64,000 nt of DNA from a virus. Taxonomy: Duplodnaviria; Caudoviricetes. The DNA lies in the IMG/VR virus record IMGVR_UViG_3300042554_001750. One strand, written 5' to 3'. Below, piece after piece: positions 2,820-51,317 of the stretch. Every line of letters begins with the position of its first letter. Positions within the stretch are counted from its first letter, which is position 1. The position numbers were made by a program, and so were the translations under genes. The notes beneath the pieces were generated by a model. That model was not told the origin of the DNA. It saw only the letters and a program-made list of their open reading frames with translations, and made no database searches.

Positions 2820-3371
2820 TTACATCCCTGCTATTGCTTTTAAATTTTTGATTTCTTGGTCTTGTGCTTCTTGAGTTGGTTTAGTTGCAAGTCCAGCAAT
2901 TTCTCTCATCTCATTTAATTCTTCTTCGTTTTCTTTTTCTTTTTTATAAACATTTGGATTTGTAATAATTACCTGACGCAATACATGTTCATCAGCATCA
3001 TAATCCTCATCATCAACTTGTACAGTCCACTCAGTTAATTTTAATCCTGTCAAAGTTTTTAGGTCTGAAAGTAATTCTACGATGCGACCAGGTACAGTTG
3101 ATCTTCTGCTTAATTCAACAAATACTAAGTATTTTCCAATGTCAATCTCACTGTCACTTAAACTAGCATCTAAAACCCAGTCATAACCTCTTTCAAACCA
3201 ATCAACTAAATCATTTCCTACTTGTTCGGATTTTACTGTGAAAGCTAAAGTAACTATGTCTTTATCTTCACCCATTTTAGCCGCATACTCATCTACTGTA
3301 ACGGTAGGAAAAACTTGATTTTCCATATCGTGAAAATCTAAGCCTTCAGTAATAAAAATTCTATCTTTCAT
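2820..3371 (-). CDS. hypothetical phage protein
   Basis: 183-aa ORF tightly packed in the operon. Confidence 0.8.
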   Translation of the reverse strand: MKDRIFITEGLDFHDMENQVFPTVTVDEYAAKMGEDKDIVTLAFTVKSEQVGNDLVDWFERGYDWVLDASLSDSEIDIGKYLVFVELSRRSTVPGRIVELLSDLKTLTGLKLTEWTVQVDDEDYDADEHVLRQVIITNPNVYKKEKENEEELNEMREIAGLATKPTQEAQDQEIKNLKAIAGM

Positions 3372-3373
3372 GA

Positions 3374-3949
3374 TTATTTTGTAGCTTCTTGATTTGATTC
3401 TTGATTTTCAGTGTTTTCACTTTGGTCAATATTTTCTTTATCTAAATCTTCTTCGTATGCATTTTCAATTTCTTCTAAATCTACGGTCTGATCAGATAAA
3501 TCTATGTATCCTTCTTTGATATCGTTCATTAAGTCTTTTGGTATTGTAATTTTAACAAACCAAACTTTTCGTTCTTTCCACTTAGGATAGCGAGTTCCGG
3601 GCTCAAAGTCATCGTAATCTTTGACTTCAATAGGTACTTTAATTTCACTTTTGCCAAAAGATACATCACATCCCAAAGCAGCTAATCTTTTGATTGCACT
3701 TGGATCGGGCATAAGTTTGTATGGCCACATGAATACACAAGAAACTGTGTATCTACCAATATTAGGCCCTTGTACTAATTCACCTAGCTGCCAATTTTTA
3801 AAAGCATATAAATCGGCTTCGTCTAATACTCGTTCGTAGTCCAATAAGGTAGACATAGAACCATCGCTGGTCATGATACCTTTAACTGTGCTTATAATAC
3901 TTACAAAGTCAATGTCGTCAAAGAAGTTGTCTGCGGATTTATGTTTCAT
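3374..3949 (-). CDS. hypothetical phage protein
   Basis: 191-aa ORF preceded by GATAAATA (3954-3961). Confidence 0.8.
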   Translation of the reverse strand: MKHKSADNFFDDIDFVSIISTVKGIMTSDGSMSTLLDYERVLDEADLYAFKNWQLGELVQGPNIGRYTVSCVFMWPYKLMPDPSAIKRLAALGCDVSFGKSEIKVPIEVKDYDDFEPGTRYPKWKERKVWFVKITIPKDLMNDIKEGYIDLSDQTVDLEEIENAYEEDLDKENIDQSENTENQESNQEATK

Positions 3950-4116
3950 CTTGTATTTATCAAGATATAAAAGAAATTGAAAGATTGAAATTTTTACCCT
4001 TAGCCTAATATTTATCTAGGAATTTGTGTAAAAACATGCACATTTTACAGTATGCATGACCTTTTTAAATAACATTGAATGTTGCAACATTTACTGCTCT
4101 TAAAAAGGAGAAAAAC

Positions 4117-4896
4117 TTGAGCAAAAGAAAAACTAGTGCATTACGCAATAATATCCAAGATACACGCTCACATTCAAAACAATCAGATCAAACATTCTAC
4201 ATGAAAGAGTCTAAAACTATTGACTTCAATAAGGGACAACTAAAGGTTAAAGTACGAAAACCAGTTGACCTAATCCCCAAAACCCTAAATCAAGAAAAGT
4301 ATATACTTTCGCTACTTGACAATGAAACCGACATTGTAGTAGTATCGGGGCCAGCGGGCACGGGTAAAACTTATTTGGCAATGGTTGCAGCCATCAAAGC
4401 AATGCGCTCTGGTGAATGCAGTTCAATCATTTTAACTAGACCTGCAGTAGGTGTAGACGATGAAAAACATGGATTCTTACCCGGCGATTTAAATCAAAAG
4501 ATGGAACCATGGACTCGTCCATTACTTGATGTACTCAGAGAATATTATTCGGTTAAAGAAATACAACAAATGCTAGAAGAACAAATTATAGAAATAGCAC
4601 CCCTAGCATTTTGCAGAGGCAGAAATTTCAAAAATAGCTGGGTAATATTAGATGAGGCTCAAAACGCTACTCCAAGTCAATTAAAAATGATTATGACAAG
4701 AATAGGAGTAGGAAGCAAAATTGTAATTACAGGTGATGTTGAACAGACTGACCGAAAATCTACTCAAAATGGTTTACAAGACCTTGTAGATAGATTACAA
4801 GAATCCAAAGTTCCAGGATTAACTTCGTGTAAATTTGATATCCGTGATGTACAGCGACACAAAATCATAGAACATGTGTTGAAACTATACTCTTAA
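4117..4896 (+). CDS. phoH: PhoH-family ATPase
   Basis: GPAGTGKT Walker A; RGRNF, ILDEAQN and GDVEQTD motifs. Likely start is TTG 4117 after AAGGAG. Confidence 0.93.
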   Translation: MSKRKTSALRNNIQDTRSHSKQSDQTFYMKESKTIDFNKGQLKVKVRKPVDLIPKTLNQEKYILSLLDNETDIVVVSGPAGTGKTYLAMVAAIKAMRSGECSSIILTRPAVGVDDEKHGFLPGDLNQKMEPWTRPLLDVLREYYSVKEIQQMLEEQIIEIAPLAFCRGRNFKNSWVILDEAQNATPSQLKMIMTRIGVGSKIVITGDVEQTDRKSTQNGLQDLVDRLQESKVPGLTSCKFDIRDVQRHKIIEHVLKLYS

Positions 4897-4920
4897 AAAT
4901 GGGGCTTAGGCCCCATTTTT
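4895..4920. terminator. bidirectional intrinsic terminator
   Basis: AAAAATGGGGC-TTAG-GCCCCATTTTT between convergent genes. Confidence 0.85.
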
Positions 4921-5185
4921 ATTCGGCTTTTGAAGTAATAGTTGCTTCTTTTTCTAGTTGCTCAACTAGATTGGGATAAATTTTCTTATAATATTCCTGC
5001 ATCTTTTCCCAATCAGTATCTACAATCTTACCTTCAATAACACATTTATTGACTGTTTTTGAAACGAAATCCATAATAACATTACATGTTTGTAGATCGG
5101 CTGGCTTGATCCGTTTTGAAACTACAACCTGTTCGTCAATCTGCCCACCGGGCTTTCTAATAAAAGTTATAAGTAAATATCTCAT
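4919..5185 (-). CDS. hypothetical protein
   Basis: 88-aa ORF with ATGA overlap to the upstream gene. Confidence 0.8.
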   Translation of the reverse strand: MRYLLITFIRKPGGQIDEQVVVSKRIKPADLQTCNVIMDFVSKTVNKCVIEGKIVDTDWEKMQEYYKKIYPNLVEQLEKEATITSKAE

Positions 5186-6105
5186 GATGTTAGTTCTGCT
5201 AATGTTGCTGCCAAACTGATTTCGGGAATTCCTACTAGTGGAAGATTGGCAAGACCGTTCCTTATAATAATGATACTTTCGTCTTTCTTTTCTTGTGTAC
5301 TACCCCAAAGATCAATATTATCATACATCCATTTATAAGTATCTTCAATTCGTGTAGGATGCAGACTAATATATTGCATCAGTCGTTGTCTTCCTTCAAG
5401 AATTTTTCCAGCCTTGAATAATTGAGTCGCTTCAATCAACAATTCATGTTCACTAGCACCCTGACTTTGTGAGGGTAGAAGCTTACCACTGTTGCTATTG
5501 ACTTGAAGTTGATTCAAGCATTTGCGTAAATCTGGATAAGTTCCTCGCACATAAGTATCCAATGTATCTAAATCAAACTCAACATTTTCAGTTACAAGAA
5601 CAGTGGCTGCTCTTGCTGTGAATTCTGTCATGTCCGTTTTAGCAATATGGAATTCGTGACAGCGTGACTTCAACGCAGGAATAATCTTGTGTGCATAGTT
5701 ACAAGTTAGAATATATCTAACAGTCATATGATATGCTTCCATATCATTACGCAATGCTGCCTGACTTGGTTGAGTTAGATAGTCAGCCTCATCTAGTAAT
5801 ACGACTTTAAACTTACCAAAGGGCATTGTTTGAACAAAGCCATTGATCTTTTCACGCAACATATCAATACCGTTTTCACGGCTTGCGTTGATTTCAAGTA
5901 CATCAAAATCTTCTACACCAAGTTCGTTTATAAGAACTTTAGCCAGTGTAGTTTTACCTGTACCCGGATCACCACTGAACAGTAGATGCGGAATACTTTC
6001 GTCAGTAATCCATTGTTTTACTTGTTGTCTTTGCCGATCATCAACAAAAACATACTCATCTACTGTACCAGGACGATATTTCTCTACCCAAAGTTGATTC
6101 TTCAT
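5182..6105 (-). CDS. gp44: clamp loader ATPase subunit (T4 gp44/RFC-like)
   Basis: WVEKYRP, GDPGTGKT, LEINASRENGID, LLDEAD and SRC motifs. Confidence 0.93.
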   Translation of the reverse strand: MKNQLWVEKYRPGTVDEYVFVDDRQRQQVKQWITDESIPHLLFSGDPGTGKTTLAKVLINELGVEDFDVLEINASRENGIDMLREKINGFVQTMPFGKFKVVLLDEADYLTQPSQAALRNDMEAYHMTVRYILTCNYAHKIIPALKSRCHEFHIAKTDMTEFTARAATVLVTENVEFDLDTLDTYVRGTYPDLRKCLNQLQVNSNSGKLLPSQSQGASEHELLIEATQLFKAGKILEGRQRLMQYISLHPTRIEDTYKWMYDNIDLWGSTQEKKDESIIIIRNGLANLPLVGIPEISLAATLAELTS

Positions 6106-6791
6106 TCTTTCTTTTCACCAAAAAGTTGTAGTAACGACAAGAAGATATTAATGAAATCTAGGTACAATGTCAATGCCCCTGACACTTCCGCTGCACCCGT
6201 ATCAGTATCATAACTGACCATTTCACGAATCTTTTGGGTGTCATATGCTGTTAGTCCCAAAAAGATAATAATAGCCAAAGCACTAATAACCATAGCACCC
6301 ACAGTACTACCAATGAAAATATTAATGATAGAGGCAATAATAATGGCAATGAGACCAACAAACATAAACTTGCCAAGACTATCAAGGTTGCTCTTAGTAA
6401 AGTACCCATATAAACTCATGACTCCAAATAATACGGCAGCACCCATAAATGCTGTAAAGATGCTACCCATTTGATATACAGCAAAGATTGTAGCAAAGCT
6501 AAGTCCCATCAATGCCGCAAAACCGTATAGCATTAGTTGTGCTATTGATTTTGGAGGATTAGCGTTAAGTGCTGCTGAGATACCAAATATTGCAACCAGT
6601 GGTAGAAAAATAACAACCCACTTTAGCCAACCTGTAAAGAAAAATTCTAGCAATGCTGGAGTAGTTCCAACAAAATAACTTACAAACATACTTACAAGAA
6701 CAGCAAGGCTCATGTGTTGATATACTCTTGCCATCGCTGTGTTGATTTGTTCAGCATTTCTATATGCTGGAATAGCTTCAGTGTAAAACAT
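6102..6791 (-). CDS. Bax inhibitor-1/YccA-family membrane protein
   Basis: About seven hydrophobic segments; AYDTQKI and ALTLYLDFINIFLSLL signature. Confidence 0.9.
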   Translation of the reverse strand: MFYTEAIPAYRNAEQINTAMARVYQHMSLAVLVSMFVSYFVGTTPALLEFFFTGWLKWVVIFLPLVAIFGISAALNANPPKSIAQLMLYGFAALMGLSFATIFAVYQMGSIFTAFMGAAVLFGVMSLYGYFTKSNLDSLGKFMFVGLIAIIIASIINIFIGSTVGAMVISALAIIIFLGLTAYDTQKIREMVSYDTDTGAAEVSGALTLYLDFINIFLSLLQLFGEKKE

Positions 6792-6794
6792 AGT

Positions 6795-7085
6795 TTAACT
6801 CCTTAAATTTTGATATGTAATAATTTTTCCAATTTCAGAACCAAGGTCCTTATCATCAGTAATAATATGTAGATTCATGTTATTTTCATCGCGCTTTCTG
6901 TCATATTGGCGAGTTTCAATAACGAATCCACCGTCAGCACGATAAACACTAAAATTCATGCCGTGAGTATTCAGTGACCGTTCTGATACGGTTGCTAACC
7001 TGGGTGATATATCTTTCTCTAGTTGATTAGCATCTTCCCATGCCTCACGACACATTTTAGCAAACCATTTTTTAAAAAAACTCAT
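6795..7085 (-). CDS. hypothetical protein
   Basis: Likely start ATG 7085 (MSFFKKW), with ATGA overlap to the upstream stop. Confidence 0.75.
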   Translation of the reverse strand: MSFFKKWFAKMCREAWEDANQLEKDISPRLATVSERSLNTHGMNFSVYRADGGFVIETRQYDRKRDENNMNLHIITDDKDLGSEIGKIITYQNLRS

Positions 7086-7717
7086 TGTAAATTTACCTTT
7101 CCTCCGCACTTAGGGCATACAAAAGCACCCTCACTATCTTCGTCAGGATTCTCAACTAACTCCATAATATCGTCAGTTACAAAATCGCAACTTTCACATT
7201 TGAATTGTGCGTATTCTGCAGGTTCGGTAGCATTCTCAAAAGGCCAAGCGGCACCGGGCTTTAATTCAACTGAACTAATTTCTGTAGTTTCTTCGTGTTC
7301 GCCTGTTGTGAAACTTTCACCTTCTGTGCCATCATCATTGATTCTTGTGATTTCTAAATCACAATCAATGATCATTTCACATTCATCTTGCGTCCAGCCA
7401 TGATCACATTCAAGGTCTAACCAACTGTTACCTTCATCAAAGAATTCTTCAAGCCATTCTTGTGTTTCTTCGTCACAATCATCCAGATCATGGTCTTCCC
7501 AACAACCGTCGGTAGTTTCAATTAGTTCGCTTTCATATCCGCAGTTATAGATATCTACCCCTGCTTCAATTTTGGGAGGATTATCGTCGTCAGTGTAAAC
7601 ATAAAATTCACCCCAGCGCCAACCTGTTTCAACCATAATAGTATTGTCATCTTTGGTCAAGTAGTTGCGTTCAACTACTGACTTCTTCCAGGTTGGTTCT
7701 ACTTTCCAAGTTGCCAT
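7082..7717 (-). CDS. acidic hypothetical protein with C-terminal zinc ribbon
   Basis: CESC...CPKC at the C terminus; likely start ATG 7717 after AAGG. Confidence 0.75.
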   Translation of the reverse strand: MATWKVEPTWKKSVVERNYLTKDDNTIMVETGWRWGEFYVYTDDDNPPKIEAGVDIYNCGYESELIETTDGCWEDHDLDDCDEETQEWLEEFFDEGNSWLDLECDHGWTQDECEMIIDCDLEITRINDDGTEGESFTTGEHEETTEISSVELKPGAAWPFENATEPAEYAQFKCESCDFVTDDIMELVENPDEDSEGAFVCPKCGGKVNLQ

Positions 7718-7718
7718 T

Positions 7719-8087
7719 TTAATATACCTTATCACTCATTGTATGATCATTGACGGGTTCATCACTCACCATGAGTACTTCATTGTTATCAACTTTACGG
7801 ATAACTTTTTCACCCTCGTCATCTTCTATTTTAATCCCTCTTGTCCAACGACCGTGACTGATTAGGATATATTGCCCAACCTGTATGTCCTTTTGTTCGG
7901 GTCCAATAGCATATACCTTTGCCCATCTTGGACGAATGCCCGAACTTTTCATATCATCATTTAACAATACGATGCCACCATTACTAATACGTTCATCAAA
8001 TGTCATATCAGATACAATGATAGTATCATTTAATGGATACAACTTTTTGATTTTGTGCGCTGCGTAGGCTAACTTTTTATCTTCCAT
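7719..8087 (-). CDS. groES: GroES/Cpn10-like co-chaperonin
   Basis: PLNDTIIV...GGIVL...VYAIGP...IQVGQYIL pattern of Cpn10. Confidence 0.8.
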   Translation of the reverse strand: MEDKKLAYAAHKIKKLYPLNDTIIVSDMTFDERISNGGIVLLNDDMKSSGIRPRWAKVYAIGPEQKDIQVGQYILISHGRWTRGIKIEDDEGEKVIRKVDNNEVLMVSDEPVNDHTMSDKVY

Positions 8088-8464
8088 TACTCTTCCTCTT
8101 TATTGCTGGCCTTTTTGATTTCTTCTACTTCAAAATCATCTTCCATTTCAGCAATAAGTTCTATTTCTTCTTGGGTTAATTCTTCTTCTTTGGGTAGTTC
8201 AGCTAACACAATCTGTTCCTGGATTGGTTCAGGTTGAATTTTATCGGCGACTGCTCTAACTGGATTAGCTGTTCTATTACCCACAGTCTTAGAATAGTTT
8301 TTGTTAACCTTTGAAGTAACGGGCTGAATGATTCTGCCATTACTATCAATCGTGTCTCCGCGGGCGTTAACCTTCATATTTCCAACAGCCCTAGTTTTGT
8401 CATTTTTTGTAACCAGTGCCGACATATCAAAAGGTTTACCCAATGCTGTTCTGCGAATAACCAT
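8087..8464 (-). CDS. hypothetical protein
   Basis: 125-aa ORF with AGGAG RBS and upstream GTAAATA. Confidence 0.8.
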   Translation of the reverse strand: MVIRRTALGKPFDMSALVTKNDKTRAVGNMKVNARGDTIDSNGRIIQPVTSKVNKNYSKTVGNRTANPVRAVADKIQPEPIQEQIVLAELPKEEELTQEEIELIAEMEDDFEVEEIKKASNKEEE

Positions 8465-8486: not shown

Positions 8487-8993
8487 TTACTTCAAAAACT
8501 CGTCAATTGACAAATCATAGAATATTGAATTGATTTTGTGTACTCCCAAGAGATACAAAACATAACTTGCTACGCTACTACCTCGTCCTACTCCCCAAAC
8601 AATATTATGTTGTCGCATCGTGTCTACTAAAAATTTAAGATACCTTAGTAGGTCAAACATATCCCGTTCTTGATACAACAAAAGTTCTTGACCCACCCGT
8701 TGCAATTCAACTTCCGTAGTACACAAATCTAAAACATATTTGGCTATATCCAGTTGTTTATACTGTTCGGGCATGAGCCACTGTCTTTGTAGTCCCAAAT
8801 CAAAATCCTCAACAGACAAGTTAGTTGGGATGTATTGTTCAATTTGGGGAATGTCTGACAAATCTAAAGATTCGTCAAATAAAATTTCCTTGTCAGTCAA
8901 AACTTTAGACAAAGAGATTTCAGGATTCTTTAGATAGAATTCACATAAGTCTGTTTCAGAATAAATCTTCTGACCATAAATATCTTGGCGCAT
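8487..8993 (-). CDS. dnaE: DNA polymerase III alpha (DnaE)-like fragment, N-terminal piece
   Basis: RVGQELLLY...WGVGRGSSVASYVLYLLGVHKINS...EFLK matches the DnaE segment GPGRGS...LGIT...ERFL. Confidence 0.8.
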   Translation of the reverse strand: MRQDIYGQKIYSETDLCEFYLKNPEISLSKVLTDKEILFDESLDLSDIPQIEQYIPTNLSVEDFDLGLQRQWLMPEQYKQLDIAKYVLDLCTTEVELQRVGQELLLYQERDMFDLLRYLKFLVDTMRQHNIVWGVGRGSSVASYVLYLLGVHKINSIFYDLSIDEFLK

Positions 8994-8999
8994 TTAGAT

Positions 9000-9029
9000 A
9001 TTATAAAGCATACCAACTACTGGTGTCAA
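9000..9029 (-). promoter_or_regulatory. sigma70-type promoter for the DnaE N-piece
   Basis: TTGACA-18 bp-TATAAT; ATG 6 nt downstream of -10; no SD. Confidence 0.7.
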
Positions 9030-32176: not shown

Positions 32177-33359
32177 GAATTAACATATTCTCATTCGTTC
32201 TTCCATTAAATGATGTTGCCACTGCCTTAATGTCAGCAAAAAACTTTCTACCTGAGGGCTTACCGAGTTTTAGAAATTCTTTTAATTGTTCTCCTGGTTT
32301 GCGAATAGTTTTGACTTGACTTTTACCGGAGTCAAACCCAAGAATAGCAGTACCTTTCACAGTAAATGACTTGCTATACTCATCCGCACATAGATAGATT
32401 AACTTGCGTTTGGCACTGTCGTATAGATAACATTCACTAGCACCATGCAGTTTAACAGGATGCAAACTAACAAGGTCCAATTTCATTGCAGGATCTTTGA
32501 ACTCCTTCAGATACTTAAGCTTACTGACAAGCTTTTCAACAGGAACTGCCTTACGGGCCCGGGGTGCCTTAGCTGCCTTCTTGACGCTAATATAACTATT
32601 AAGGTCAGCGATTACCTGTTCAATAAATTTGATAATATTTTTAACTTGTGTTTTGGTTAGGTAGCTGTATCCCTCAACCAATTGCTTGTCCTTAGCCTCA
32701 AGCAACTCAGTAAATTCATTTAGTTTCTTTTTCCAAACATCAGTTAGAATACTGATATGCTGAGGCAATACATTCTTTTTAGCAACTTCATCCAGTGCTT
32801 TAGTAGCAAACTTACTAGGTGCGCCGGATAGTACAAAGTCGTCAAAGAGTCCTTCAAGTTCGCCCCCTGCTTCCCGTGCCTTTTCCTTCATAATTTCTTG
32901 CACATTGGGACGATTGACAGGTTCTTTATCCTCAGCAATCTTAGTTACACTGGTTTTACTGACTTTGATTTCGGGCTTATGAACTGCCTTGATTAGCCGT
33001 TGAATCTCGTTTTCTAGTGTAGTTTCTTCATGTTCTGTCAATTCCAAACCACGAAGTTTCATTCGTGCGACCCAACACCAACTCATCATTAGTTCATTGT
33101 CGGCAACTTTTCTAATGATTTTAGCATCATCTTTGCGGTTGCTCAGTTCCAAATATTGAATGAGTAGGTCTTTTGCGTCTTTGCGGCCATAAAACTTACT
33201 GTACCAGTTCAGTGCGCGACCAAGAGCATGATTACGCAAGTCAGGCTCGGGTTGTAGCGCAAACAAAGGCTCATCACCCATATACTTGGTGTCCGGATCC
33301 CGTGGATTCAATGCTCGGACACCAGTAGTATCAATAACCTTCTTAGATTTCTTAGTCAT
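32163..33359 (-). CDS. conserved hypothetical phage protein
   Basis: 398-aa ORF with GGAG RBS and a sigma70 promoter. Confidence 0.85.
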   Translation of the reverse strand: MTKKSKKVIDTTGVRALNPRDPDTKYMGDEPLFALQPEPDLRNHALGRALNWYSKFYGRKDAKDLLIQYLELSNRKDDAKIIRKVADNELMMSWCWVARMKLRGLELTEHEETTLENEIQRLIKAVHKPEIKVSKTSVTKIAEDKEPVNRPNVQEIMKEKAREAGGELEGLFDDFVLSGAPSKFATKALDEVAKKNVLPQHISILTDVWKKKLNEFTELLEAKDKQLVEGYSYLTKTQVKNIIKFIEQVIADLNSYISVKKAAKAPRARKAVPVEKLVSKLKYLKEFKDPAMKLDLVSLHPVKLHGASECYLYDSAKRKLIYLCADEYSKSFTVKGTAILGFDSGKSQVKTIRKPGEQLKEFLKLGKPSGRKFFADIKAVATSFNGRTNENMLILKAW

Positions 33360-49231: not shown

Positions 49232-49612
49232 ATGGCTTTAAACGATTTTTTTAAGAAGTTGAGCGAAAATCATCCCTTTATAACGGTTTGCTCATACGCT
49301 AATCAAGACTATGTAGGAATAGTGCAAAACAGGGATGATACAGTCACCACAATATATGATTACGGAGCCATTGTTGATCAGGAAATCAAGAGTAAATTCT
49401 TAGAACTAGGTGATATTTGGTGGTGGGAAAGCAATAGACTTATACCTATAAATCTATTTTTGAAAGATGAATGGAGTATTTTTAAGCCCTATCTAAGAAC
49501 TTTTAATAATAAAAGTTTAGTAATTTTACACGGGCCCACATGTAGTATGAATGAACTTCACAAACGCCGTAGTAAGAGGCGTAGTATCACGCTAGTCAAG
49601 CGTATTTCCTAA
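49232..49612 (+). CDS. hypothetical protein
   Basis: 126-aa ORF whose 3' end overlaps the convergent DnaE C-piece. Confidence 0.8.
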   Translation: MALNDFFKKLSENHPFITVCSYANQDYVGIVQNRDDTVTTIYDYGAIVDQEIKSKFLELGDIWWWESNRLIPINLFLKDEWSIFKPYLRTFNNKSLVILHGPTCSMNELHKRRSKRRSITLVKRIS

Positions 49613-50176
49613 TTCTACTAATAAATTCATATGTACTGCTACTAGCCACGCATACCCAACCGCGTGTGCTTTCTTAAACTGATATCCGTCAGTGCCACGA
49701 TCCCATATTGTTTTTGCTACTTCAATCCAGGGTAGTCCAATCAGATGCTTTTTTCCCGGGCGAATCAATGCTAGAAACATAGCAAGTCTAGGAATACTAT
49801 TGACTGGTTCGGGCATCTTAGTTAGTGACGGATAATGATTTCCAATATGAATTAGTTTTTCTACAAAGAACGGATCATTCAATTTCTTCCAGTCAGGATC
49901 CCGCATAAGTTCTATCAAATGCTTTTCATCACGGACATGCTTATAAACATGTACATTCAATAAATCCAACTTAAAATAACCCCTCTTTTCTGCGTCTGAA
50001 TAGTCAATAGCTGCCATATCATTTACAGGATCGTAGGGTATTTCTGTAATATGAACTCCAGTAGCATGCTTGCGAATAGGATTTACCTTTAGCATAGCTG
50101 AAGGGATATGTTTTATATGTTGCAGTAATGTACTTCTATCTGCTAAGTCAATGTCTACATCAGTATCAATTTTCAT
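49592..50176 (-). CDS. dnaE: DNA polymerase III alpha (DnaE)-like fragment, catalytic palm/finger piece
   Basis: TDVDIDL (PDxDxD), RKHATGV, GYFKLDLL, LALIRPG and YQFKKAHAVGY, in DnaE order. Confidence 0.85.
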   Translation of the reverse strand: MKIDTDVDIDLADRSTLLQHIKHIPSAMLKVNPIRKHATGVHITEIPYDPVNDMAAIDYSDAEKRGYFKLDLLNVHVYKHVRDEKHLIELMRDPDWKKLNDPFFVEKLIHIGNHYPSLTKMPEPVNSIPRLAMFLALIRPGKKHLIGLPWIEVAKTIWDRGTDGYQFKKAHAVGYAWLVAVHMNLLVELGNTLD

Positions 50177-50763
50177 AATTGTATTGTTTTTATGCCACGC
50201 AATAACATTTCAACGCTAACTGCTACCAATATAAGACCCATTAATCTTTCCATAGCAATTAAAAATCTATTACCCAATAGATGTTGTATTCTATCACCTA
50301 TTAATAAAGCAATCATACTTATGGTAATACCTACTCCCATCGCTGCCACCCATACCCAAAACTCATCGGGTTGCTGACTAACTAATAACATCACAGTAGC
50401 TAACGCACTAGGTCCTGCAATCAATGGTATTGCCAATGGCACTATAAATGGTTCATGGTCCAATATTTCTTCTTCAACATTAGAATCATTAGGAAATACC
50501 ATTTTTATAGCAATAAGAAATAAAATAACTGCGCCTGCTAATTGGAGACTAGCATTACTTAATCCCAATGCACTTAAAAAGTGCTGACCCACAATCATAA
50601 AAAGAAATAGAATACCGAAAGCAATAAAATGCTCACGCACGATAATCCAACTTCTTTTTTCTACGCTATACTTTTTTAGTGTACTACTAAAGATGGGAAA
50701 ATTTCCAAACGGATCAAATATAAGTATCAGTAGCATCAATGCTGAAACAAATGTGTAGGTCAT
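50173..50763 (-). CDS. marC: MarC-family integral membrane protein
   Basis: DPFGNFPIF, IVPLAIPLIAGPSA and ERLMGLIL signatures. Confidence 0.9.
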   Translation of the reverse strand: MTYTFVSALMLLILIFDPFGNFPIFSSTLKKYSVEKRSWIIVREHFIAFGILFLFMIVGQHFLSALGLSNASLQLAGAVILFLIAIKMVFPNDSNVEEEILDHEPFIVPLAIPLIAGPSALATVMLLVSQQPDEFWVWVAAMGVGITISMIALLIGDRIQHLLGNRFLIAMERLMGLILVAVSVEMLLRGIKTIQL

Positions 50764-51317
50764 GACATAAAACCTGCCTTCATTAATTTCATGTAAGCCT
50801 GTTGTACAACAATTGCCTGTCGTTCAGCATCTTCTACTGCTTTGTGACTAGTCTTGTGTCCACCATCTTTTAATTTTACTCCGGCAATCTCATACAATGT
50901 TCTAGTATCACGAACAGTATAGAAAGGCCAGGGTATAGGATTAGGATAATCAGTTAATGTTTGACGCATGCCTGTTTCGCATGCGACCACATCAAATGCC
51001 GCTCCGTTACTCCAAACTGCTCTACGATTCCAACAAAACTTATAAAGTTGTTCCATACATTCTTTAAATGAAATACGATCCCTATCTCCCAATGCTTCTT
51101 CCATTGCTTCAGGACTTTGTGTACTCCACCAACGCAATGTATCTTCGTTGATAACTCTGTTGTGTATTTCTGTCTGATCCTCAATTGTAGGACGCAACTC
51201 TAACCGTTCTATAACACCTTGACCCTTAGGATCAAATCTCACAGCCCCGATGGTAAGTATAACACAATAAGGGCTTGTGTCAAGCGTCTCCAGATCAACC
51301 ATTATATCATTTGCCAT
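50760..51317 (-). CDS. DEDDh 3'-5' exonuclease (Rv2179c-like)
   Basis: MVDLETL, WSNGAAFD and HKAVEDA motifs. Confidence 0.85.
   Translation of the reverse strand: MANDIMVDLETLDTSPYCVILTIGAVRFDPKGQGVIERLELRPTIEDQTEIHNRVINEDTLRWWSTQSPEAMEEALGDRDRISFKECMEQLYKFCWNRRAVWSNGAAFDVVACETGMRQTLTDYPNPIPWPFYTVRDTRTLYEIAGVKLKDGGHKTSHKAVEDAERQAIVVQQAYMKLMKAGFMS

Follow-up and report, generated by a model that had tools for sequence, protein, structure and literature searches.

Two distant genes of an uncultured phage encode the two parts of a probable split minimal DNA polymerase III alpha

The window analysed here is the whole 64,000-nt stretch of DNA of IMG/VR record IMGVR_UViG_3300042554_001750, a virus of class Caudoviricetes. 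The open reading frame at 8487-8993 (-) was confirmed as a real gene of 168 codons with an ATG start. We refer to its product as the N-unit and to a 194-amino-acid protein encoded 41 kb away as the C-unit; the two show homology to successive parts of bacterial DnaE, the alpha subunit of DNA polymerase III. The features of the two loci are as follows.

8487..8993, (-): N-unit gene of the putative split minimal Pol III alpha, 168 aa, ATG start
9000..9029, (-): sigma-70-type promoter of the N-unit gene, TTGACA-18 nt-TATAAT, 12/12 positions of the consensus
8087-8464, (-): small protein (phrog_14844) whose first 50 residues are conserved, following the N-unit gene
7719-8087, (-): Cpn10/gp31-like co-chaperonin, also following the N-unit gene
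5182-6105: gp44-type clamp loader
49592..50176, (-): C-unit gene of the putative split minimal Pol III alpha, 194 aa, product starting MKIDTDVDID
50760..51317, (-): DEDD 3'-5' exonuclease (Pfam Rv2179c-like, 2e-30), in the operon of the C-unit

The N-unit matched the Pfam family DNA_pol3_alpha (PF07733) with an E-value of 9e-9 (35.8 bits against a cut-off of 23.9), its residues 94-167 falling on profile positions 21-94 of 260, and it matched phrog_11127, described as 'DNA polymerase', at 1e-40. With phmmer, it was placed weakly (E 0.21) on residues 379-454 of Thermus aquaticus DnaE, the match ending at FERFL. A global profile alignment, itself weak, made the whole N-unit collinear with Escherichia coli DnaE from about residue 223, which lies just past the PHP domain, to residue 393. 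The GRGS motif occupies residues 136-139 and is invariant across 94 relatives, and the protein terminates with IDEFLK. In terms of the DnaE palm fold, the N-unit contains the rigid part of the large palm subdomain together with the nucleotide-binding 'GS' motif (R137-G138-S139). A profile search of the PDB by sequence gave only a weak match to DnaE (E 0.18), and a weak VHL-like match to residues 31-108 (E 0.35) was put down to chance. The single-chain AlphaFold2 model was poor (pLDDT 73, and below 50 for residues 133-168), and Foldseek with this model did not retrieve DnaE, a result to which we give little weight in view of the shallow alignments behind the models.

The C-unit matched phrog_11778, also described as 'DNA polymerase', at 2e-55. 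It had no Pfam match of its own, and the Pfam family DNA_pol3_finger was matched by 41 of its 96 relatives. Its recognizable features are an aspartate strand (D6, D8 and D10), K36-H37, K69/D71, R139-P140 and a helix-loop-helix bearing Y165 and H171; it has lost the thumb tip and most of the fingers. A PDB profile search by sequence gave no match to DnaE for this protein, a word-based search for longer relatives found none, and its single-chain AlphaFold2 model, also made from a shallow alignment, was poor (mean pLDDT 50).

For comparison with E. coli dnaE (b0184) by hhalign, one profile was built from 94 N-units and another from 96 C-units. N-unit residues 97-168 aligned with DnaE 322-393 (E 6.7e-6), so that R137-G138-S139 correspond to R362-G363-S364, E165 to R390 and the last residue, K168, to N393. 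For the C-unit, residues 3-21 fell on DnaE 398-418 in a weak segment search (E 0.023), with M1 equivalent to R396 and D6/D8/D10 to D401/D403/D405; residues 35-142 fell on 509-642, equating K36-H37 with K510-H511, K69/D71 with K553/D555 and R139-P140 with R639-P640; and residues 156-184 fell on 743-773, equating Y165 with Y754 and H171 with H760. The N-unit contributes R137-G138-S139 and the C-unit D6, D8 and D71, so that the catalytic triad (D401/D403/D555) and the GS motif are complete only across both chains. The two chains together comprise 362 amino acids, and in comparison with E. coli DnaE they lack about 77 residues of the thumb (approximately 419-508), about 87 residues of the fingers (approximately 643-742) and everything past about residue 783.

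In E. coli numbering, the N-unit stops at 393 and the C-unit begins at 396. The two proteins do not overlap, and the gap consists of two residues, P394 and E395, with the equivalent of R396 sitting at the break itself. The break is well conserved: all 80 IMG/VR N-units compared end with [E/D]-F-[L/I/M]-[K/R] plus 0-6 residues, and all 80 C-units start 3-5 residues ahead of D-[I/V]-D-I-D, in most cases with K or R as the second residue. There is no space for an intein, since nothing follows EFLK in the N-unit and only five residues precede the first aspartate of the C-unit, and none of the 80 relatives has extra sequence at the break that could represent N- or C-terminal intein fragments. In a 2026 cryo-EM preprint on the ternary complex of E. 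coli Pol III (10.64898/2026.06.29.735100), palm residues 271-393 remain rigid upon DNA binding and the part carrying D401/D403 moves; the phage cut at 393|396 coincides with the end of the rigid region given there. The palm may tolerate a break at this site because it is the boundary between its rigid and moving parts.

The preliminary description of this locus had read the 168-amino-acid protein, from the window's sequence, as a stand-alone N-terminal half of a split DnaE that carries GRGS and ends at IDEFLK, exactly ahead of the catalytic motif opening the 49592-50176 protein. The profile alignment, which leaves neither an overlap nor a large gap between the two pieces, bears this out. It likewise upholds the more specific statements that the residue at the position of R390 appears to be a glutamate and that the R396 region falls in the break. 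The description had further stated that no intein is present and that no full PHP domain is evident; both points agree with the absence of room for intein sequences and with the lack of any PHP match in the N-unit or in four related phage records.

Both genes were found, in one copy each, in all five isolates (SCTP-2, Atu_ph07, PA5oct, GAP32 and Phosso) and in all five complete IMG/VR genomes (328-462 kb), and both were also present on four of five long contigs of closer relatives, as expected if the two pieces belong together. The distance between them ranges from 34 to 224 kb in the ten isolate and complete genomes and is about 41-44 kb in the closer relatives, near the 41 kb of the window. 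A tblastn search of a phage collection retrieved 103 N-unit and 96 C-unit records, with the same counts by the first word of the phage name apart from exceptions (four Clostridium phage records with the N-unit only, and one extra Klebsiella phage record with the C-unit). The window's copy is at most 50% identical to the proteins of the isolates. The family is large; at 90% identity there are more than 8000 N-unit clusters, of the same length and with the same end point, and 5540 C-unit clusters. An exhaustive search of representatives with the C-unit gave 364 matches, nearly all of which were 180-215 amino acids long or fragments. Among the sequences examined, one natural fused form was found:

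L086 1066-2193, (+): P0289, 375 aa, both halves in one protein, on a single 2.4-kb ENA contig

Residues 21-180 of P0289 align with the N-unit (32% identity, 4e-16) and residues 190-372 with the C-unit (39% identity, 2e-40), and a linker of nine residues connects the EFIK that closes the first part with the ADFDID that opens the second. At the level of sequence, this protein bears out the predicted order of the two halves and shows them to be contiguous. The fused form rests on this one 2.4-kb contig, because searches for relatives of P0289 found none in IMG/VR and only ordinary full-length DnaE genes in JGI metagenomes.

The complex of the two units was modelled from our own alignments, from which proteins of GenBank phage records had been left out. 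The pair reached an ipSAE of 0.91 in three runs, compared with 0.00 for the best of three controls; in a benchmark, 58 of 80 solved complexes and 2 of 110 mismatched pairs attained this mark. The three runs shared at least 97% of the contacts, and the pLDDT of the partner was at least 90. Contacts in the model with the lowest error include N-unit residues 133-134 with C-unit residues 10-11, which would place the GS strand against the aspartate strand as in a single palm sheet. The model therefore supports binding of the N-unit to the C-unit, as a predicted interface. Solved relatives exist for the fold of which the two pieces are halves, so the score may reflect the model's memory of solved DnaE structures, that is, likeness to them instead of binding. 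With the alignment and the co-occurrence, the predicted interface supports the split-DnaE interpretation of the preliminary description.

The N-unit gene has its own promoter, as had been noted earlier; TTGACA-18-TATAAT at 9029-9000 (-) matches the sigma-70 consensus at all 12 positions. The -10 hexamer ends 6 nt ahead of the ATG at 8993, and no Shine-Dalgarno sequence precedes this ATG. Judging from this spacing, the transcript would be leaderless, and early expression is plausible. Of 57 upstream regions of relatives, about 20, at 39-64% protein identity, share this layout, the distance from the -10 hexamer to the ATG being 5-7 nt and the match mostly covering at least 10 of the 12 consensus positions; a simple probability calculation predicts well under one case by chance. 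The 64-kb window contains eight perfect (12/12) sigma-70 promoters, all on the minus strand and in two layouts. Three of the perfect sites and one 10/12 site have the 6-nt layout (ATGs at 2209, 8993, 61066 and 55289, (-)), which the N-unit gene thus shares with three other genes of the window. In the other layout, the leader is about 30 nt long and includes a segment, ACAGTTA...GGAG, common to these sites (ATGs at 33359, 58908, 60003, 60834 and 63144, (-)). The promoter candidates for the C-unit operon, an 11/12 sigma-70 match inside the exonuclease gene and a TATAAAT-like site before 52292, were unconvincing.

Both genes lie among genes for replication proteins. The N-unit gene is upstream of that for the clamp loader, and the C-unit gene is flanked by the DEDD exonuclease gene on one side and by the primase and DnaB-like helicase genes on the other; besides the gp44-type clamp loader, the primase and the helicase, the 64-kb window encodes a tail sheath. 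The order of N-unit, phrog_14844 protein and Cpn10-like co-chaperonin is kept in SCTP-2, Atu_ph07, PA5oct, GAP32 and Phosso, and the order extended to the clamp loader is seen in the window and in four of these five isolates; Phosso has the small protein and the co-chaperonin, and no clamp loader is annotated within the stretch that was fetched. No family B DNA polymerase (PolB) was seen within the 64-kb window, and a complete 364-kb relative encodes a PolB of 904 amino acids and no PHP domain. The replication block from the co-chaperonin to the clamp loader also contains a gene for a Bax1-I/YccA-like membrane protein (6102-6791, (-), Pfam 2.7e-54), which lies immediately upstream of the clamp loader gene and, like the MarC gene described below, is a host-like membrane gene.

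At the C-unit locus, the exonuclease gene is directly upstream of the C-unit gene in 65 of 80 close relatives and is not found within 1.5 kb of it in the five distant isolates; the exonuclease is possibly a proofreading partner. In the window, a gene for a MarC-family integral membrane protein (50173-50763, (-), Pfam 1.3e-47) lies between the two, and the ATG of the C-unit gene overlaps its stop codon as ATGA. In none of 80 related loci does a MarC gene occupy this place, so that a host-like gene seems to have been inserted recently into the replication operon. Convergent with the C-unit gene, and overlapping its 3' end by 21 nt, is a gene for a 126-amino-acid protein (49232-49612, (+), phrog_11637 at 1e-31). 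This protein is the most constant neighbour of the C-unit, being present in 79 of 80 IMG/VR relatives and in the five distant isolates (25-47% identity) even though the N-unit gene lies 34-224 kb off, and it may be a third component.

The conservation pattern bears on whether the pair could be active. Invariant residues are R99, E103, G134, G136, R137, G138 and S139 in the 94 N-units, and D6, D8, D10, K69, D71, R139 and P140 in the 96 C-units, which extend down to about 30% identity; H37, K168 and H171 of the C-unit are conserved in at least 90% of the 96. In the E. coli Pol III structure, the residues within 4 A of dGTP are those of the GS motif, D401/D403, Y754, F756, N757 and H760; R639-P640-G641 and G753 contact the templating base, and K510-H511 and K553 contact the primer (10.64898/2026.06.29.735100). 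H760 is the steric gate against ribonucleotides (PMC8485763). R362A and K553A each abolish the activity of E. coli Pol III, and R390A causes a 27-fold loss of catalytic efficiency (10.64898/2026.06.29.735100). Each of the residues that contact dGTP, the primer end or the templating base is matched by a conserved residue of the phage pair. This conservation of the nascent-base-pair pocket and of the steric gate favours template-directed, dNTP-specific DNA synthesis, and a polymerase of this type is what the heterodimer would most likely be, as far as sequence can tell. Several features argue against full competence: the position of R390 is occupied by a near-invariant glutamate, R396 is at the break, the equivalents of the index-finger residues R709, R710, K714 and K715 fall in the deleted stretch, and the pair lacks the thumb tip that grips the duplex in DnaE.

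Taken together, we consider it probable that the N-unit is the N-terminal unit of a split minimal DNA polymerase III alpha, a non-covalent partner of the 194-amino-acid protein, and that the pair is an auxiliary polymerase of T4-related (group 2.2) jumbo phages. The N-unit alone would be half an active site, consisting of the rigid palm part and the R-G-S motif that would hold the sugar and phosphates of the incoming nucleotide. It would bind the C-unit, encoded 41 kb away, non-covalently and without an intein. The C-unit would supply the three metal-binding aspartates, the equivalents of K553 and K510-H511 for the primer end, those of R639-P640 for the templating base, and those of Y754 and H760 for stacking and the steric gate. 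One beta-sheet would be completed across the subunit boundary, where Pbeta1 from one chain would lie next to Pbeta2 from its partner. Because PHP, thumb-tip, clamp-binding and OB parts are all lacking, the heterodimer would be a short-patch or auxiliary enzyme for primer extension, gap filling or repair, working beside the family B replicase of the phage.

Other readings of the same observations have to be weighed. The GS motif and the DxD...D triad are common to the whole Pol-beta-like superfamily (10.64898/2026.06.29.735100), so the pair might be an active Pol-beta-fold nucleotidyltransferase that does not copy a template, such as a terminal transferase or tailing enzyme, a primer-independent synthase or a maker of nucleotide signals. 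The change of R390 to glutamate, the absence of the triphosphate-binding R396 and of the index-finger Arg/Lys, and the lack of a thumb tip and of a clamp-binding region would all suit such an enzyme. We nevertheless regard it as unlikely, as residues whose only relevance is to the templated incorporation of dNTPs are conserved at about 30% identity, namely R139-P140-G141 (R639-P640-G641 in E. coli), Y165 (Y754, base stacking), H171 (H760) and K36-H37 (K510-H511), and as both genes are placed among replisome genes. The severe reduction from 1160 to about 360 amino acids and, again, the glutamate at the R390 position could also mean that the pair has little or no catalytic activity and is a scaffolding pseudo-enzyme, binding DNA or parts of the replisome, in a phage clade in which a full family B polymerase, seen in a relative, would replicate the genome. 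However, the 94-96 sequences show no variation at any catalytic carboxylate, at K553 or in the R-G-S motif, a pattern that is typical of active enzymes and would not be expected of scaffolds, and the scaffold appears somewhat less probable still.

That the 168-codon reading frame is a functionless, decaying remnant of a captured dnaE might be supposed from its correspondence to a fragment of a much longer bacterial protein and from the frequent annotation as 'hypothetical'. This is hardly credible for a sequence that forms more than 8000 clusters at 90% identity with the same length and end point, that is under strong purifying selection in conserved synteny, that has its own consensus promoter, and whose other half always co-occurs.

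An elaboration of the favoured split polymerase, which we offer as speculative and rather doubtful, is that the split itself is functional and acts as an AND gate, the active site forming only when two expression programmes both run. The N-unit would come from its own strong, leaderless, early promoter read by the host sigma-70, and the C-unit from the operon with the exonuclease, which immediately precedes the primase and helicase genes. The thumb-less heterodimer would then extend primase-made primers briefly and hand over to the family B replicase, much as is done by Pol alpha in eukaryotes, with the neighbouring DEDD exonuclease as its proofreader. A contact between the invariant glutamate at the position of R390 (E165) and the conserved Lys/Arg at residue 2 of the C-unit would, in this elaboration, fasten the two chain ends to each other.

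For group 2.2 jumbo phages, Iyer et al. 2021 (Viruses 13:63, PMC7824862, section 3.4.1, Fig. 3b) described a minimal Pol III alpha specific to phages, consisting of an N-terminal NTP-binding protein and a C-terminal Mg/template-DNA-binding protein, encoded by distant genes beside a family B polymerase. The split minimal enzyme has thus been in print since 2021 (PMC7824862); the gene studied here is another case of the same family, and its reading as such is correct but not new. As in that system, there are two units from distant genes with no PHP or other DnaE domain, and the 2021 homologues, in T4-like genomes with a family B polymerase, include those of RaK2, GAP32, PA5oct, Atu_ph07 and SCTP-2. 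Nothing essential differs; the phage here is uncultured, the N-unit gene has a leaderless-type promoter, and a MarC gene lies beside the C-unit gene. Our search of the literature found no biochemical or genetic test of any family member and no experimental follow-up of Iyer et al. 2021, and the main text of the PA5oct omics paper gives no timing for the N-unit and C-unit genes. Small additions to the 2021 description are a fused form, a cut that falls where the rigid palm region ends, the glutamate in place of R390 and the conserved leaderless-type promoter, of which the natural fusion, the cut position and the R390-to-Glu change could be useful for bench study.

Compared with bacterial DnaE (E. 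coli b0184; Thermus aquaticus 2HPI, 3E0D), the pair shares the palm fold and the motif order, with R-G-S, D401/D403/D555, K553, K510-H511, R639-P640 and Y754...H760. It differs in having about 360 amino acids in two chains, whereas DnaE has 1160 in one, in the glutamate at R390, and in the absence of the PHP domain, thumb tip, most of the fingers, clamp-binding motif, OB domain and tau-binding domain. The phage pair would be the smallest known core of a C-family polymerase and a natural active site built from two non-covalently joined chains, in a family that is very abundant in metagenomes (more than 8000 sequence clusters). If active, it would set the minimum requirement for Pol III-type catalysis and would show the role of a second polymerase in a T4-type replisome.

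The origin of a DnaE from two distant genes recalls the cyanobacterial dnaE-n and dnaE-c, whose products, in the work of Wu, Hu and Liu in 1998, are said to be joined by a split intein. In cyanobacteria, full-length DnaE is restored covalently by trans-splicing. In contrast, the phage proteins are cut at a different site, inside the palm, and they must associate non-covalently because they have no intein halves. We also noted an unrelated metagenome contig (L185) that encodes a full-size DnaE as two open reading frames at 3366-4514 and 4581-7382 (+), a PHP part of 382 amino acids and a polymerase part of 933 amino acids. This arrangement is due either to a frameshift or to a true split, and the cut lies just ahead of the K-S-E-D-E-L motif, near the start of the N-unit according to the weak global alignment.
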